This document shows, in pieces, positions 5,047-43,416 of a stretch of 44,983 bases of DNA; position 1 is the first letter of the stretch; each line of letters begins with the position of its first letter. Both the position numbers and the translations under genes were made by a program. The stretch is taken from sequence record PP920551.1, one strand, 5' to 3'. Source of the DNA: Escherichia phage KS_S9. A model generated the notes under the pieces. It worked only from the letters and a program-made list of their open reading frames with translations. It had not been told where the DNA came from and did no database searches.

Positions 5047-5811
5047 TTAGCGCGGAATACCGCAAATCTCGTTTAACGTCTTCACGTCCAGCGCCACCGC
5101 CGTGGACTTCGGCTTGTCCGGGTAAGGAATGAACTGTTCCACTTCAGGCCACGCCTTGATCAGCTTCTTATCTGTATTGTGCATATCCAGCACGCCGGTA
5201 ACAGTTAGTTTGAACGCGTCATACTTAGCACGTAACTCACGGCGGGCCTTGTCGTTACGGTCCAGGCGCTTACAGAAATCATGGTCCGCCGGGTAGTCTA
5301 TACGACCGCGTGGCATGTATATCGGCAGCGCTTTCCCGTCGTCGTCGACTTCGCACACTGACGCTAACAAAATTTCCTCATACCCTGGCACAATATCGCC
5401 GAGATCGGGAGACAGTTTATTCATGTATTTATACTCCCAGTATCCGCGATGTACTCGGAATCGGTGTCCGTCTCCGCTCAATGACACGGTACGGACGTTT
5501 CCGCCGGCGTTGATTTCGAAAGTGGCGTCATAAACGCGGCCGATACCATACGGGCGGTCAGCGTTATAACTATACGTCGCCTTGTTGGTGTATACACTTA
5601 CTCCGTACATCTGCGACGGGTCATCGCCGATTGCTTTAATGCGCGCGAGTAGCTCGGCGAAAGTGCGAATGCCTTCCGGCATACAGTCCAGCGTAATGGC
5701 GTACGCAAGGTCGCGAGAGTCCATCATGATGGATTTTGCTTCGGTCGCGATTTCATGGTCGCGCAGGATGTTAGCCAGAATCTGGTTTTTAATGTCTTTT
5801 GTCAGTCTCAT
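5047..5811 (-). CDS. Hypothetical protein, minus-strand orphan gene inside head module
   Basis: 255 aa from ATG 5811 with GAGGA RBS; the longer ORF-track version (to 6258) is a low-complexity extension overlapping the scaffold gene. No family recognised. Confidence 0.55.
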   Translation of the reverse strand: MRLTKDIKNQILANILRDHEIATEAKSIMMDSRDLAYAITLDCMPEGIRTFAELLARIKAIGDDPSQMYGVSVYTNKATYSYNADRPYGIGRVYDATFEINAGGNVRTVSLSGDGHRFRVHRGYWEYKYMNKLSPDLGDIVPGYEEILLASVCEVDDDGKALPIYMPRGRIDYPADHDFCKRLDRNDKARRELRAKYDAFKLTVTGVLDMHNTDKKLIKAWPEVEQFIPYPDKPKSTAVALDVKTLNEICGIPR

Positions 5812-5840
5812 TAGTGTGTCCTCGTTGTTGGTGTGCAACC

Positions 5841-5869
5841 AATATATGCAACCAATACGAGGATTGCAA
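5841..5869 (-). promoter_or_regulatory. Sigma70-like promoter for gene 5047..5811
   Basis: On minus strand TTGCAA-N17-TATATT, with ATTGGTTGCA motif copies forming the -35 and spacer; about 25 nt upstream of ATG. Confidence 0.45.
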
Positions 5870-11425: not shown

Positions 11426-11427
11426 TG

Positions 11428-11741
11428 AAGCGGGACAGGCGGGACGTCCCGTTTTGTCCCGCCTCTGTAAAACCGCATATCTAATCACTTTCATTGCATA
11501 AACTCAAAGCGGGACAGGCGGGACGTCCCGTTTTGTCACGCCCTGTAAATGTGCATACCTATGCGGATTTCGTGCATAAACCAAACGGGACAGAAAGCGG
11601 GACAAACAAGAGGCGGGACAAAGCGGGACAGCACCCCGTCCCCGCCAGTGCTGCCGCGGGTTTTAGCCGATCGGGACAGCGGGACAGCACCCCAGTCTTT
11701 CAGACTAGACGGGGGTCAATGGCCCCCCTCGTCTGAGACTG
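11428..11741. repeat. Iteron-like repeat region: 2x nested 35-bp palindrome, GCGGGACA direct repeats, long GC hairpin
   Basis: AGCGGGACAGGCGGGACGTCCCGTTTTGTC(C/A)CGCC at 11428 and 11508; GCGGGACA x6 at 11586-11692; hairpin 11693-11741; 11572-11741 duplicated at 39895-40065. Confidence 0.8.
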
Positions 11742-11809
11742 AATAAGGTTTGTTTTAAATTCGCTGATACAATGACCGACGGCAACTGCATAAAAAGGGG
11801 GACTGCATA

Positions 11810-25416: not shown

Positions 25417-25446
25417 AATATAATGCAACCAACCTATTGGTTGCAA
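25417..25446 (-). promoter_or_regulatory. Sigma70-like promoter overlapping perfect palindrome TGCAACCAA-ccta-TTGGTTGCA
   Basis: On minus strand TTGCAA-N18-TATATT; palindrome 25424-25445 straddles the stop of the HAD-like gene; leader hairpin CGGGGC-N6-GCCCCG at 25391-25408. Confidence 0.45.
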
Positions 25447-27326: not shown

Positions 27327-27355
27327 AATATAATGCAACCAATCTAATTATGCAA
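27327..27355 (-). promoter_or_regulatory. Sigma70-like promoter with tandem ATTGGTTGCA motif
   Basis: On minus strand TTGCAT-N17-TATATT; two direct motif copies 17 bp apart. Confidence 0.45.
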
Positions 27356-27360
27356 CCAAT

Positions 27361-30045: not shown

Positions 30046-30071
30046 CCCAAAAATGGCGGGACAAGCCCGCC
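30046..30071 (-). terminator. Intrinsic terminator (minus strand)
   Basis: Minus strand reads GGCGGGC-ttgt-CCCGCC followed by ATTTTT. Confidence 0.5.
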
Positions 30072-30283: not shown

Positions 30284-30312
30284 ACTATACCGCTATGCGA
30301 CCAATTCAGCAA
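30284..30312 (-). promoter_or_regulatory. Putative internal sigma70-like promoter
   Basis: Minus strand TTGCTG-N17-TATAGT with ATTGGTTGC / ATTGGTCGCA motif copies; ~25 nt upstream of ATG 30252. Confidence 0.35.
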
Positions 30313-30571
30313 CCAATAAATCGCAGTCGGCTATGTTGTCGATAACGCGAACGTCAGCACCGCGGCGGGCCATTCGCTCATGTTCACGTACCTGGTGCGG
30401 CTTCGGTTTTCCTCCGGGGCGCTTCACTTCGACGAACACTATTTTGCCGTTGATGATAATAATCAGGTCGGGCGCACCTGCGCGCCCCTCCCATGCCAGT
30501 TTTCGGCAGAATCCGCCAACATCTTTCACCCGTCTCATCAGGTGGCTTTGAATCTTGCCTTCTGGTGTCAT
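30293..30571 (-). CDS. VRR-NUC domain nuclease
   Basis: 92 aa from ATG 30571 (TAATG overlap with polymerase stop): GAPDLIII..GKIVFVEVKRPGG..Q matches the VRR-NUC PD-(D/E)xK pattern. Confidence 0.65.
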   Translation of the reverse strand: MTPEGKIQSHLMRRVKDVGGFCRKLAWEGRAGAPDLIIIINGKIVFVEVKRPGGKPKPHQVREHERMARRGADVRVIDNIADCDLLVAELVA

Positions 30572-33867: not shown

Positions 33868-33957
33868 TTTCCAATTCCTCATTTTCACATGTATCGGGGT
33901 TATTGGAGGCCACCCCGTTCGGCTTGGTTGCCAATTTACTTGGTTGCGCTTAAGCGG

Positions 33958-37483: not shown

Positions 37484-39748
37484 ATGAGCTTAATTAAATT
37501 CGCAGTAACACGACCCGCTAAAAAAGGCGAAAAAGCCAGGGCGGAAAACTACCAGATGACAACCGATGAGTTTTTCGAATTTATCAATGACGCGAAAGAA
37601 ATTTCCTCGGTGCATATCAACAAGACGGAAGATAAAGCCGAGTATGCGCGCCGCAAGCGTAAGGCCGATGGCATCGTGGCTTATACCAGTGATGGGCTGC
37701 GCCGCAAGACCAGTGCCGTGGACCGCTCGATCCTGTTCTTCGATATTGACCGCACCGACACCCGCACCCTGCGCCGCTGCCGTAAGGCGTTCATCGACGC
37801 GGGTCTGGAACACGTATTTCACACCACCACCGGCGACCGCCACCCGCTGAAGGGCGGCACGCGTTGCGCCCGTTTCCTGGTGCTCACTGACAAGCCTGTA
37901 CCGGCTGAAGACCTGGGCCGCGTCCAGTATGCACTATTACACCAACTGGGCCTGTCAGATGTGGACTTCGACGACTGTACAAAAGACACAAACCGCCTTA
38001 TGTACCTGCCACACCAACAGTCTGTTATCAAATGCCATTACGGAAAGCGCGCCCGTGTCCGTCGTCTGCTTCGCCTGGCCGATAAGCTGGGAATGGAAAA
38101 AGAGGAAGTACGCCGCGAACTAACCCAGGGCGATGACGGCGTGGCGGACGGTATTCTGGATTGGTGCTTCCAGGCGGGATTCGAACCGCTGTCGTCCGGT
38201 CGTGGTTATGAAGTGCCGTGCCCAAACGAACACCTGCATAGCGGCGAAGGGTCCACCGCTATCATGGTTAAGGATGGCGAGATCCGTTTCAAGTGTATGC
38301 ACACCGGCAACGAGTGTTGCTCGGAACTGAACAGACACCAGCACCTGGCGCTACGTCTTATCGGGATCCCGGACCACCTGAACGTCGAACCGCACAACAT
38401 GTCACGTAAGCAAATCGCCGCCATCCTCCCAGGACTGGACGACGAGGAAGTGGAATCGTGCTATGCGCATATCGTTGATGCGGTCGGAGACGGCGACGAG
38501 TACGGCGGATGTACGGACGCAGACCTGGACAACGAGCCGGTTGCACTGTTCAGCAAGCACGACCCGATCATCGAGGGGTTGATTAACTTTAAATCGACCT
38601 GGTATCTTGCCGGTGAGTCGAACATCGGTAAGTCGTTCTATGTGCTGGGCCAGATGGCGTCCGTATCTGCCGGTATCCCGTTTGGCGGTGCGAAGGTCGT
38701 CCAGTGCCATAACTTCTATTTCGACGCGGAAGGTGGTGAAGCCTCCAACCAGCGTAAGGAAGCATTGCAGATCAAATATGAGCACGACCTGGACAAGCTG
38801 CACATTATAGACCTGCAATCTCGCGGCTGGGATATCACCAGCAAATCAGGACTGCGTGAAGTTATCAGCTTTATCAATCGCACCGCTAACGGCGAACCGG
38901 TTGGCCTGGTGGCGTTCGACTCACTCAACCAGACTGTTGCGTTGCGGTCCGCCGATGCCAAACCGTTCGACGAGAACAACGCCAGCGATATGGGCGAAGT
39001 TGTCAAGGCGCTGAAGGCCATTGCGGAAAATACAGGCGGCAGTGCGGGCATCATCCACCACCCGGCGAAGGGTGCAAACGGCAGCAGAACGCCACGCGGA
39101 TCTGGCGCGCTTCATGGTGCTGTCGATTCTGCGTTCTTCCTGGAACAGCCGGACGACAACCAGCCAGGCCAATTGAACTTGTATCACGAAAAGGCACGTA
39201 ACGGCATCAAGCAAGCGCCACGAGGCTTCGTCCTGCTCAAGTGCAAGGTTAAGGTGGATCTCCGCAAGTCCGAAGCGTTCGAAGCCCACCAGTCCACCAG
39301 CACCGGGCCTGACTTCGGCGACGTGGTTGCCGGTTGGGACGTCAAGCCGATCGCATCCACGCCACGCGACGAGACTCTCTACCTCGTACCGGTCGCCCTG
39401 GCACCATTCGCCATCGAACAGGCAAAGGCCACTGGCAAAGCAGCAGTTAAGGAAGAGAACGCCGCAGGACCGCGCAACGAAAAAGAGAAAGTGCTTTATG
39501 CGGCACTGGAAAAACTGATGGAAGATAACCCGGACCATACCGGATTCAGTAAATCGGCAATTGTCCGCCAGGCTGGACTTGCGAAAGGTGGCACATCGAC
39601 GAAGGCAATAGACGATATGGTGGAGCGCGGCGTGCTCGGTTTTTATACAGATCCGCACACCGGGGCCATCTATGGGTCGTCGAATATCGTCATCAAAACG
39701 AATATACCCATCACGCTTTCGGCGACCGACGATGACCTGAAAGATTAA
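37484..39748 (+). CDS. Primase-helicase-like replication protein (P-loop NTPase C-terminal domain)
   Basis: 754 aa; Walker A GESNIGKS and Walker B-like GLVAFDSLNQ in C-terminal half; N-terminal half has acidic DxD-containing segments (FFDIDRTD) as in primase domains. Confidence 0.6.
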   Translation: MSLIKFAVTRPAKKGEKARAENYQMTTDEFFEFINDAKEISSVHINKTEDKAEYARRKRKADGIVAYTSDGLRRKTSAVDRSILFFDIDRTDTRTLRRCRKAFIDAGLEHVFHTTTGDRHPLKGGTRCARFLVLTDKPVPAEDLGRVQYALLHQLGLSDVDFDDCTKDTNRLMYLPHQQSVIKCHYGKRARVRRLLRLADKLGMEKEEVRRELTQGDDGVADGILDWCFQAGFEPLSSGRGYEVPCPNEHLHSGEGSTAIMVKDGEIRFKCMHTGNECCSELNRHQHLALRLIGIPDHLNVEPHNMSRKQIAAILPGLDDEEVESCYAHIVDAVGDGDEYGGCTDADLDNEPVALFSKHDPIIEGLINFKSTWYLAGESNIGKSFYVLGQMASVSAGIPFGGAKVVQCHNFYFDAEGGEASNQRKEALQIKYEHDLDKLHIIDLQSRGWDITSKSGLREVISFINRTANGEPVGLVAFDSLNQTVALRSADAKPFDENNASDMGEVVKALKAIAENTGGSAGIIHHPAKGANGSRTPRGSGALHGAVDSAFFLEQPDDNQPGQLNLYHEKARNGIKQAPRGFVLLKCKVKVDLRKSEAFEAHQSTSTGPDFGDVVAGWDVKPIASTPRDETLYLVPVALAPFAIEQAKATGKAAVKEENAAGPRNEKEKVLYAALEKLMEDNPDHTGFSKSAIVRQAGLAKGGTSTKAIDDMVERGVLGFYTDPHTGAIYGSSNIVIKTNIPITLSATDDDLKD

Positions 39749-39861
39749 ATCCTGCGCGCATTGGTTGCCGATATGGGGATTACCATATCGCTAAAAGGTT
39801 AAATTTTGCGCGCATTGGTTGCCATTTTGAGTGTTTTTATCAGGTAGTATTGGTTGCCGTG
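39745..39861. repeat. Three direct repeats carrying TTGGTTGCC immediately downstream of primase-helicase gene
   Basis: TTAAATCCTGCGCGCATTGGTTGCCGAT at 39745, TTAAATTTTGCGCGCATTGGTTGCCATT at 39799, GTATTGGTTGCCGTG at 39847. Confidence 0.75.
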
Positions 39862-39894
39862 TATTGTGAATATAGTGAATAGTTATGCAGTTTT

Positions 39895-40065
39895 GGTGCA
39901 TAAAGTAAGCGGGACAGAAAGCGGGACAAACAAGGGGCGGGACAAAGCGGGACAGCACCCCCGTCCCGCCCCGGATGGCGCGGCCTGGAGAGGAGCGGGA
40001 CAGGCGGGACAACCCCCAGTCTTTCAGACTAGACGGGGGTCAGCGGCCCCCCTCGTCTGAGACTG
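39895..40065. repeat. Second copy of GGGACA-iteron plus hairpin element
   Basis: GCGGGACA x6 followed by hairpin CAGTCTTTCAGACTAGACGGGGGTCAGCGGCCCCCCTCGTCTGAGACTG; near-identical to 11572-11741 (loop differs TCAATGG vs TCAGCGG). Confidence 0.8.
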
Positions 40066-40282
40066 AATAAAATCCGGGGATTGCAAAATACACGGCAGCA
40101 CGATGCGAAGTGCTGGCGAGGATGAACTAGGCAACCAATACGAGTTGCATTATGCTGAGTGAAAAATGCAGTTTGCAGTCACAGCAGATAGCGATCAACT
40201 TTTTCATGCGCGTGATTAATATTGGTTGCATTCGGCCTGGCACCCGGCTATATTGGTCGCACACCAACATGAGGACTGATCG

Positions 40283-40588
40283 ATGAGAGCACTAATCTGG
40301 AATTACTCACTGGCCCTGGCAAAGCTGAACGAAGCGAAAGCGCTAAACGGCAACGTAGACCGTGCGCGCCAGTTTGCGACACTGGCATACCAGTCAATCA
40401 TGTGTGCGCTAGACGATATGGACGCCGGCATGGATGACCTGGGTCCGCTGCGTAAGGCAATCCATGAATACGCGCTGGCATTCTCCCGTGAGCGCCTGGC
40501 TTATCGCTTCGGTATTGGCGAGAAGGCAGTGACAAACGTCGCCAGGATTAAAGCCCAGCGTGAGCTATTCGCCCAGCTTGCGAAATAA
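40283..40588 (+). CDS. Hypothetical protein
   Basis: 101 aa, GAGGAC RBS, first ORF after the repeat-rich region. Confidence 0.5.
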   Translation: MRALIWNYSLALAKLNEAKALNGNVDRARQFATLAYQSIMCALDDMDAGMDDLGPLRKAIHEYALAFSRERLAYRFGIGEKAVTNVARIKAQRELFAQLAK

Positions 40589-40597
40589 GGGGCCAAA

Positions 40598-40873
40598 ATG
40601 GGACGTAGACGAGCAAAACAGCTTTCGTGGCATATTCCCCTGCATTGCATACGAATATGGGCGGAGAATGCAGTTGAGGGAGAATCGGTATTCTGGTGCT
40701 ATCGCGACGACGTAAAGCCGTTGACGCAGACTCGCTACTTGCACCAGTTCGCAGCACAACATGATTTCAGGGTGCGGACTTCCTTGCAACCAATGGGGAT
40801 TCGTATTACATTACGCCGGAAGCCAGCCGTTGAGCGGGTAGGCAAACACTGGAGACTGCGCAAATGTTCTTAG
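40598..40873 (+). CDS. Hypothetical protein
   Basis: 91 aa, AAGGGG RBS. Confidence 0.45.
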   Translation: MGRRRAKQLSWHIPLHCIRIWAENAVEGESVFWCYRDDVKPLTQTRYLHQFAAQHDFRVRTSLQPMGIRITLRRKPAVERVGKHWRLRKCS

Positions 40874-42074: not shown

Positions 42075-42092
42075 TTATGCAAGCGTGATATA

Positions 42093-43352: not shown

Positions 43353-43416
43353 ATTGCTTGACTCGCAACCAACACAGGGGCCATACTGCAACCAATCAAC
43401 TGGAGGAGTAATCAAG

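Follow-up and report, generated by a model that had tools for sequence, protein, structure and literature searches.

The genome of Escherichia phage KS_S9 (PP920551.1), of which a stretch of 44,983 nucleotides was analysed (hereafter the window), carries an array of short repeats in a non-coding gap directly downstream of the gene for a primase-helicase. We propose that positions 39787-40100 represent an iteron-type replication origin of this enzyme and give this reading a probability of about 0.65; binding, melting, priming and origin activity are what we infer from sequence comparison. Six direct repeats and one inverted copy of CGGGACA would be recognised by the C-terminal winged helix of the primase-helicase, and this recognition would bring the hexameric enzyme to the DNA beside its own gene. 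The duplex would open at the AT-rich tract 39787-39886, while an invariant hairpin and two opposed flanking copies of the octamer ACGGCARC (R, A or G) are candidate loading or priming signals. A second module in the tail-gene cluster (11574-11741) may provide another docking site, either as a second origin or as a fork barrier, as has been proposed for oriR of phage SPP1. The origin would be of an ordinary, already known type that had not been noted in this phage group; the literature searched contained nothing relevant on the origin, the repeats or transcript maps of Dhillonvirus and Guernseyvirinae.

Co-variation of the repeats with the primase-helicase C-terminus

The DNA following the primase-helicase gene was compared in eleven lineages (43-100% protein identity), and the homologues of the enzyme group at 97%, 80-87%, 66-69% and 43-49% identity. 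All eleven lineages possess a non-coding gap of 360-650 bp directly after the gene, each with its own 7-8-mer repeat, namely CGGGACA in the window and L101, GGGGAGA in Salmonella phage SE1, GGGATAA in L257, TCCGACA in L258, GGGGATC in L103 and L254, TGCGGAA in L256, and TTGCGAG in L102 and L104. One recognisable scaffold is common to the window, L101, SE1, L257 and L258; the remaining lineages are alike in the position of the gap, the presence of their own repeat arrays, a long hairpin and copies of the heptamer CGGCARC. A comparison with related phages had been recommended in the first-pass annotation of this DNA as a check on its proposal of an origin, and with this comparison the origin became the best-supported explanation.

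The C-terminal domain is the fastest-evolving part of the primase-helicase, with about 21-57% identity across lineages versus 46-94% elsewhere in the protein. The exception is the pair L103/L254, whose domains are 86% identical and whose repeat is the same; the other repeat-sharing pairs show C-terminal identities of 58% (window/L101) and 56% (L102/L104). One example of an exchange is provided by SE1 and L258. Their primase and helicase part is 94% identical, the small helix-turn-helix (HTH) protein encoded upstream is 98.6% identical, and the C-terminal domain is 53% identical; each repeat has been swapped in place, from GGGGAGA to TCCGACA, within an otherwise conserved scaffold. Because the repeats co-vary with the C-terminal domain and not with the small HTH protein, they are best read as putative recognition sites of the former. 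The small HTH protein is probably not the repeat binder, a candidate role that we rejected given its near identity in SE1 and L258 while the repeats differ. In other lineages a non-homologous XRE-type HTH takes its place. An alignment of 34 module copies, drawn from both genomic sites, documents invariant 7-mer cores and spacing next to variable spacers, as well as invariant hairpin stems with a variable loop, and the repeat spacing is kept in relatives down to 65% identity. Invariant cores and spacing combined with variable spacers and loop fit protein-binding sites.

The presumed reader of the repeats combines three parts in one polypeptide. A RepA-like AAA_25 helicase at residues 357-531 (Pfam, E = 1.5e-19) is the sole Pfam domain seen. 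The AlphaFold model of the N-terminal 345 residues (predicted local distance difference test score, pLDDT, 86) matches the AEP domain of the PrimPol of cyanophage S-2L (6zp9, E = 1e-5), and the catalytic DxD (87-89), H120 and a Cys/His cluster are conserved. The core of the C-terminal model has the order helix-helix-helix-strand-strand, and its top Foldseek matches are all winged-helix proteins (MarR, ArsR, histone H1, ORC), every one of them with E > 1e-3. A sequence search of the primase-helicase against the PDB gave no useful match save a weak profile match to RepA (1g8y, E = 0.08), and no sequence match to the structures of P4 alpha was found.

Architecture of the gap and of its second copy

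The gap (39749-40282) separates the primase-helicase gene from an open reading frame (ORF) of 101 codons, hereafter gene 40283. Small ORFs within it are broken in relatives by 1-nt indels or by loss of the ATG, and their coding potential was therefore rejected. The first-pass annotation had described a non-coding hub at this place, and its features were recovered to within a few bases and far above chance. The motif GCGGGACA occurs 16 times in the window versus 2.0 copies expected (shuffle maximum 5), and all but three of these copies sit in the two modules described here; a lone copy at 30056 belongs to an ordinary minus-strand terminator. The six direct CGGGACA repeats lie 160-263 nt past the stop codon of the primase-helicase gene, and a 25-nt spacer parts the inverted copy GTCCCGCC from the last two of them (Table 1). 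The GGGACA iteron array and the hairpin previously noted here stood up to scrutiny, with six direct repeats, one inverted copy and a hairpin z score of -4.1. The inverted copy is degenerate at the second genomic site, and its pairing with the direct copies (helix 2, 75% paired) is unconserved.

The motif TTGGTTGCC has six exact copies in the window versus 0.53 expected, four of which are found in this region. What had been taken for three direct repeats of about 30 bp are actually two 33-nt copies with a 54-bp period (39737-39769 and 39791-39823, 88% identical, the first overlapping the stop codon) and a third unit (39845-39858) that has only 12-13 nt in common with them. The number of TTGGTTGCC-bearing units ranges from 1 to 3 among relatives; the presence or absence of the 54-bp unit explains three versus two copies, and the relative L009 is also devoid of the first unit. 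The general idea that repeats beside an initiator gene mark an origin could be retained for CGGGACA, which co-varies with the C-terminal domain, and had to be given up for the TTGGTTGCC repeats, which belong to a genome-wide motif. Likewise, the further motif copies announced for the downstream part exist (40130-40138, 40222-40229 and 40253-40260), those at 40222 and 40253 being members of the promoter-associated genome-wide motif. The candidate unwinding element, which holds TTGGTTGCC copies, ranks second among the most AT-rich 100-nt windows of the 45-kb genome.

The array is framed on both sides. Downstream of the hairpin, ACACGGCAGC pairs as a 14-nt inverted repeat with GTTGCCGTGTATTGTG on the left. 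A minus-strand CGGCARC copy upstream and one or two plus-strand copies after the hairpin are found in nine of the eleven lineages, and in L104 and L257 the gap lacks the minus-strand copy. The box GTGAATAGTTAT is also present in SE1, L257 and L258, and GCATAAA is invariant at both genomic module copies. The 7-nt spacer (39890-39896) of the inverted repeat TTATGCA-N7-TGCATAA has two forms among the phages, GTTTTAT and the reverse complement of this, ATAAAAC; the palindrome's loop has therefore been inverted in the course of evolution. In the window, the module opens with the box GTGAATAGTT (39866-39889). The same box is located in the Kagunavirus fEg-Eco19 (L098; 4360-4420 and 4780-4840) within the spacer of a strong sigma-70-like promoter (TTGACA-17-TATAGT), which is duplicated on either side of an XRE repressor-like gene located downstream of that for the primase-helicase.

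The hairpin following the repeats has a predicted energy of -28.4 kcal/mol (z = -4.1), and none of 200 shuffled sequences was as stable. In six of the six lineages folded, a long hairpin of unrelated sequence is predicted at the same place; it is better than shuffles in four (z = -4.1 in the window, -4.1 in L101, -4.4 in L104 and -2.2 in L102) and not in SE1 (z = -1.05) and L103 (z = +0.58). Similar long hairpins were recognised by eye in L257 and L258. A terminator scan called no plus-strand intrinsic terminator in 39749-40282, where the hairpin is followed by AATAAAATCC, and the same scan called ordinary terminators at 42092, 43328 and 44918. The hairpins were accordingly rejected as intrinsic terminators, since the T-tract is absent; the structure in the window is not a terminator although the phage has ordinary ones elsewhere, and we count this for the origin. 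The "terminator" annotated in phage CS16 is just the pair GGGGCGGGAC...GTCCCGCCCC. A DnaA-dependent origin was rejected as well, because matches to the DnaA box (TTATCCACA) carry two mismatches at best and the best of them, TTATGCACC, is unconserved in relatives. A scan of bacterial genomes for GCGGGACAAAGCGGGAC returned scattered single matches in unrelated, mostly GC-rich taxa, with about 70 chance matches to a 17-mer expected in 596 Gb.

The repeat array is not unique to the initiator site, and the same module is located in the tail-gene cluster. Seven GCGGGACA copies are present at 11430-11686, and the duplicated part extends over about 170 nt from GCATAAA to the end of the hairpin, with identical repeat spacing in 39898-40065 and 11574-11741. 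The second module has this spacing in all 15 Dhillonvirus contigs examined, and every Dhillonvirus contig that could be checked for both sites contains two copies per genome. The tail-gene copy was found only in Dhillonvirus genomes, the 65-68% lineage loci stopping short of the tail genes, and it is absent from Salmonella phage SE1. Because SE1 carries the initiator-adjacent copy only, this position is ancestral and the tail-gene copy a later addition. The two modules are 88% identical within a genome, orthologous copies are 89% identical between genomes and non-orthologous ones 86%; the slight excess of within-genome over non-orthologous similarity is significant in a permutation test (p = 0.009). 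A conserved extended -10 element, TGATACAAT, follows the second module ahead of the tape-measure gene, and relatives in GenBank have small hypothetical ORFs annotated over 11426-11809.

Table 1. Coordinates of the features discussed (positions in the 44,983-nt window; a dot marks features without strand)
Feature	Position	Strand	Remarks
Primase-helicase gene, 754 aa	37484-39748	+	N-terminal AEP/PrimPol with Zn motif; helicase; C-terminal winged helix (predicted)
Predicted winged helix of the primase-helicase C-terminus	residues ~666-737, nt 39479-39694		pLDDT 78-89
Small HTH protein, 109 aa	37144-37473	+	directly upstream of primase-helicase gene, heads operon
Tandem duplication, 54-bp period	39737-39858	+	two 33-nt copies of CTGAAAGATTAAATCCTGCGCGCATTGGTTGCC and a short third TTGGTTGCC copy
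TTGGTTGCC copies	39761, 39815, 39850	+	exact match
Inverted TTGGTTGCC copy	40130-40138	-	exact match
Palindrome ATATGGGGATTACCATAT	39771-39788		
AT-rich tract, candidate DNA-unwinding element	39787-39886	.	65% A+T vs genome mean of 45%
ACGGCAAC copy at left arm	39853-39860	-	
Left arm of 14-nt flanking inverted repeat	39855-39868	-	93% complementary with 40084-40097
Conserved box GTGAATAGTTATGCA, then inverted repeat TTATGCA-N7-TGCATAA	39875-39903 (inverted repeat 39883-39903)	+	alignments
Four direct GCGGGACA (CGGGACA) repeats	39909, 39921, 39937, 39947; span 39909-39954	+	spacing 12, 16, 10 nt
Inverted repeat copy GTCCCGCC	39963-39970	-	
Two further direct GCGGGACA repeats (total six)	39995, 40004; span 39995-40011	+	
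Imperfect 49-nt hairpin/palindrome CAGTCTTTCAGACTAGACGGGGG-loop-CCCCCCTCGTCTGAGACTG	40017-40065	.	no T-tract after it
Right arm of flanking inverted repeat	40084-40097	+	carries ACGGCAGC at 40092-40099
Motif copies near gene 40283	40222-40229 and 40253-40260 (TTGGTCGC)	+	
Predicted promoter and 5' untranslated region of gene 40283	40222-40282	+	read by eye
Second module locus	11426-11809	+	385-bp non-coding gap between tail-chaperone ORF (ends 11425) and tape-measure gene (11810)
Two short palindromic units GCGGGACAGGCGGGAC|GTCCCGTTTTGTCCCGCC of the same repeat	11430-11463 and 11509-11542		
Full second module	GCATAAA 11574; six CGGGAC 11586-11685; hairpin 11693-11741; ACGGCAAC at 11779		
ACGGCARC, examples	1473, 2295, 3801, 9592, 13469, 16505, 21425, 39078, 40092	+	
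ACGGCARC, example	39853	-	
TTGGT[TC]GC(A) copies	5835-5855, 21945, 25425, 27335-27359, 30297-30316, 43365-43395	-	
TTGGT[TC]GC(A) copies	25437, 33924-33947, 36946, 40222-40260	+	

Alternative explanations and related replication systems

Several observations weigh against an origin at this site. Co-variation tells who reads the repeats and not for what purpose, and autoregulation or a transcriptional roadblock would leave an identical pattern. The block of repeats is itself rich in GC, and the second copy, which sits inside the late operon, has a weaker AT-rich flank (54% A+T per 100 nt). GC skew, which had been suggested as a check, follows gene orientation with a cumulative minimum at about 37 kb; it leaves the site unmarked, with no change at 39.9 or 11.6 kb. 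Moreover, the Foldseek matches of the C-terminal domain are weak and its model is of moderate quality (pLDDT 71 overall), and the roles assigned to the hairpin and to ACGGCARC are conjecture. One alternative is a transcriptional control module, in which the arrays would serve as operators or roadblocks for the C-terminal domain or a different phage protein, without any role in initiation. They would then separate the early replication operon from the late genes at 39.9 kb and tune tail-chaperone and tape-measure expression at 11.6 kb. Both copies do lie inside co-oriented units, each with a promoter behind it (TTGCAT-17-TATATT at 40226-40254 for one, the extended -10 element TGATACAAT ahead of the tape-measure gene for the other), and the region also has the promoter-associated TTGGTTGC motif. 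A small HTH gene heads the operon, and with no intrinsic terminator between the primase-helicase gene and its neighbour another kind of boundary could be useful. The repeats, however, track the C-terminal domain of a replication enzyme and not the 98.6%-identical small HTH protein, there is no repeat copy in the divergent promoter region upstream of the operon, and SE1 manages without the second copy, so that the initiator-adjacent arrangement is the ancestral one. We accordingly consider a purely transcriptional role unlikely.

A structured plus-strand RNA, transcribed twice in the rightward transcript, could also account for the stable hairpin, be it as a hairpin for processing or stabilisation (an RNase III site, for instance), as a put-like antitermination RNA or as a protein sponge with GGGACA motifs. 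It would agree with the orientation of both copies, which is that of the surrounding genes, with the imperfect hairpin of about 20 bp (z = -4.1), with the recurrence of unrelated hairpins at the same position in all six folded lineages (four better than shuffles; L257 and L258 by eye) and with the C(UACG)G loop of one lineage. Nevertheless, Rfam gave no match, neither at its gathering score nor at E <= 1, the sequences of the genus show no informative covariation (14 of the 20 hairpin pairs are the same in all 34 sequences), only 75% of the GGGGCGGGAC/GTCCCGCCCC helix is paired and this helix is degenerate at the second site, and our scan revealed neither a sigma-70 promoter nor a terminator that would bound such an RNA. 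In other lineages the repeats are found in either orientation and also form gapless palindromes (CGGGACGTCCCG), in keeping with recognition of duplex DNA, and the replacement of each repeat along with a protein domain speaks for recognition between protein and DNA; an RNA element thus seems quite improbable. Still less credence is given to another kind of DNA site, i.e. a pac signal, a recombination hotspot or a selfish repeat copied into the tail-gene cluster. In its favour, the two copies of one genome reach the similarity (88%) of orthologues from different genomes (89%; permutation p = 0.009 versus 86%), and the spacer of the TTATGCA/TGCATAA inverted repeat flips between phages. Neither copy, though, is near the terminase genes (23-1980), the pair is limited to two copies per genome and to Dhillonvirus, and the initiator-adjacent site is kept across lineages that have no repeat sequence in common, which makes this explanation very improbable.

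An iteron-type origin of the primase-helicase has several counterparts. The alpha protein of P4 is a single polypeptide with primase and helicase parts and, at its C-terminus, a winged helix that binds DNA; its binding site is an octamer, repeated about six times at ori and again at the distant crr, and both ori and crr are required in cis. The likeness comprises the combination of primase, helicase and predicted winged helix in one protein and the repeats at two distant sites; P4 alpha differs in having a DnaG/Toprim-type primase and an SF3 helicase, in contrast to the AEP primase and AAA_25 helicase found here. The IncQ plasmid RSF1010 has at its oriV iterons, an AT-rich region and ssi hairpins, which are served by RepA, RepB' and RepC. 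Its RepA belongs to the same helicase family, as suggested by the weak match mentioned above, and in both systems iterons are combined with an AT-rich tract and with signals, hairpins or priming sites, on opposite strands. The three functions are separate proteins in RSF1010, and the priming role of hairpin or ACGGCARC in the phage is conjectural.

Closest in position are SaPI Rep and Cch2 of SCCmec, which bind iterons directly downstream of their own genes via the C-terminal domain and whose specificity differs between related elements (PMC7581432). The phage site has the same position, short repeats of 7-8 bp, an AT-rich flank and a C-terminal domain that co-varies with the repeats. It differs in its helicase, which is of the RepA/AAA_25 (RecA) type and not of the DUF927 or D5-type SF3 kind, in its host element, a virulent 45-kb E. 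coli siphophage and not a staphylococcal island, in the additional invariant hairpin and second genomic copy, and in that binding is predicted here. SPP1, a siphophage of 44 kb, has one origin-like sequence, oriL, at the initiator gene and another, oriR, interrupting the late genes; both consist of direct repeats together with an AT-rich unwinding element, and the initiator at oriR was proposed to stall forks and to trigger the switch to concatemer synthesis (PMC6316719). The presence of the same repeats at two distant loci, one with the initiator gene and one among late genes, is reminiscent of the situation in KS_S9. In contrast, SPP1 binds its origin with a protein of its own, gp38, whose partners are a loader and a helicase of the DnaB type, oriL is located inside the gene and not after it, and there is no sequence relationship.

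If the origin reading is correct, the principle of an initiator helicase with a C-terminal reader and downstream iterons extends to virulent enterobacterial siphophages with an AEP-RepA fusion. Phages of the genus Dhillonvirus and their Salmonella relatives are common in therapy and as models, the BASEL collection being one example, and the literature searched describes no origin for them. A bounded candidate origin, a named reader domain and natural swaps of specificity make the claim directly testable. An origin map would help phage engineering, both for minimal replicons and for sparing essential cis sites when payloads are inserted, and the present analysis corrects GenBank records in which spurious small ORFs or "terminators" are annotated over the repeats.

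Genome-wide motifs and genomic setting

Among the 8-mers of the genome, ACGGCA[AG]C ranks first in frequency, with 50 copies, 37 of them on the plus strand, about sevenfold the expectation of an order-3 Markov model. Its copies are distributed over sense (34), antisense (10) and intergenic (6) positions, and since those in sense orientation fall in two different reading frames, the pattern points to a signal in the DNA and not to a peptide motif. In SE1, too, the commonest 8-mers are built on the heptamer CGGCARC, which is also frequent in the short loci of other lineages. Recognition by the primase is one possible role of the octamer, and that of a Chi-like site another. In the first case its enrichment would let a primase with a long recognition site prime every kilobase or so along the genome. 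A more far-reaching scenario, in which ACGGCARC is the site of the AEP primase and turns the module into a bidirectional priming origin, with the tail module as a programmed fork barrier or second origin that leads to concatemer synthesis, is speculative and rather doubtful.

The window represents a near-complete genome of a Dhillonvirus, a phage of E. coli, because the 801 bases around the region matched almost exclusively records of this genus. Altogether 158 phage records were hit at 88-94% identity, 142 with at least 80% of the query covered, and nearly all are Escherichia phages. The gene map rests on ORF lists and on Bas84, an annotated relative. On the plus strand, 1-24 kb are occupied by terminase, head and tail genes, DNA-metabolism genes form a minus-strand block from 24 to 37 kb, and the plus strand from 37 kb to the end of the window encodes the small HTH protein, the primase-helicase, further small proteins and lysis functions. 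The C-terminal HTH of the small protein is weakly similar to sigma-70 region 4, HTH_23 and IS630-type HTHs (Pfam, NCBIfam), and the protein is labelled "transposase" in relatives. Searches with ARAGORN and Rfam found no tRNA, tmRNA or other RNA family. CS16 (L001) and Bas84 (L002) have an extra gene of about 60 codons between the promoter with its ribosome-binding site and gene 40283, outside the repeats, and this insertion explains why the BLAST matches of some relatives fall into two pieces.

A second genome-wide motif, TTGGT[TC]GC, has 25 copies versus 4.0 expected, and 19 of them lie in intergenic DNA, which makes up roughly 10% of the genome. The copies are often paired and usually overlap promoter-like TTGCAx-N17-TATATT sites, where they provide or overlap the -35 (TTGCAx) or the -10/+1 region; those at 25425 and 25437 form a palindrome, and relatives harbor the variants TTGGCCGC, TTGGCAGC and TTGGCTG. 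Its role may be that of an extended promoter element or of an operator for a phage regulator. TTGGTTGC is a genome-wide promoter-associated motif and no origin iteron.

The first-pass annotation had considered the gap as a control region, which is correct for the last 60 nt: 40222-40282 are the predicted promoter and leader of the next gene and lie outside the candidate origin. TTGGTTGCA provides the -35 TTGCAT (40226-40231), which is followed by a 17-nt spacer and the -10 TATATT (40249-40254), overlapped by TTGGTCGC; downstream come CACACCAACA and the ribosome-binding site GAGGA (40271-40275). A simple promoter scan found none in 39400-40600 because this -35 matches at only 3 of 6 positions, and the promoter is conserved in relatives. 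The cassette TATATTGGTTGCACACCAACA...GAGGA also precedes a minus-strand gene at about 5811, and the two leaders (40249-40282 on the plus strand, about 5811-5843 on the minus strand) have TATATTGGT(T/C)GCACACCAACA...GAGGA...ATGAGA in common. The ACACCAACAGAGGAG leader is likewise located ahead of the equivalent gene in Salmonella phage SE1.

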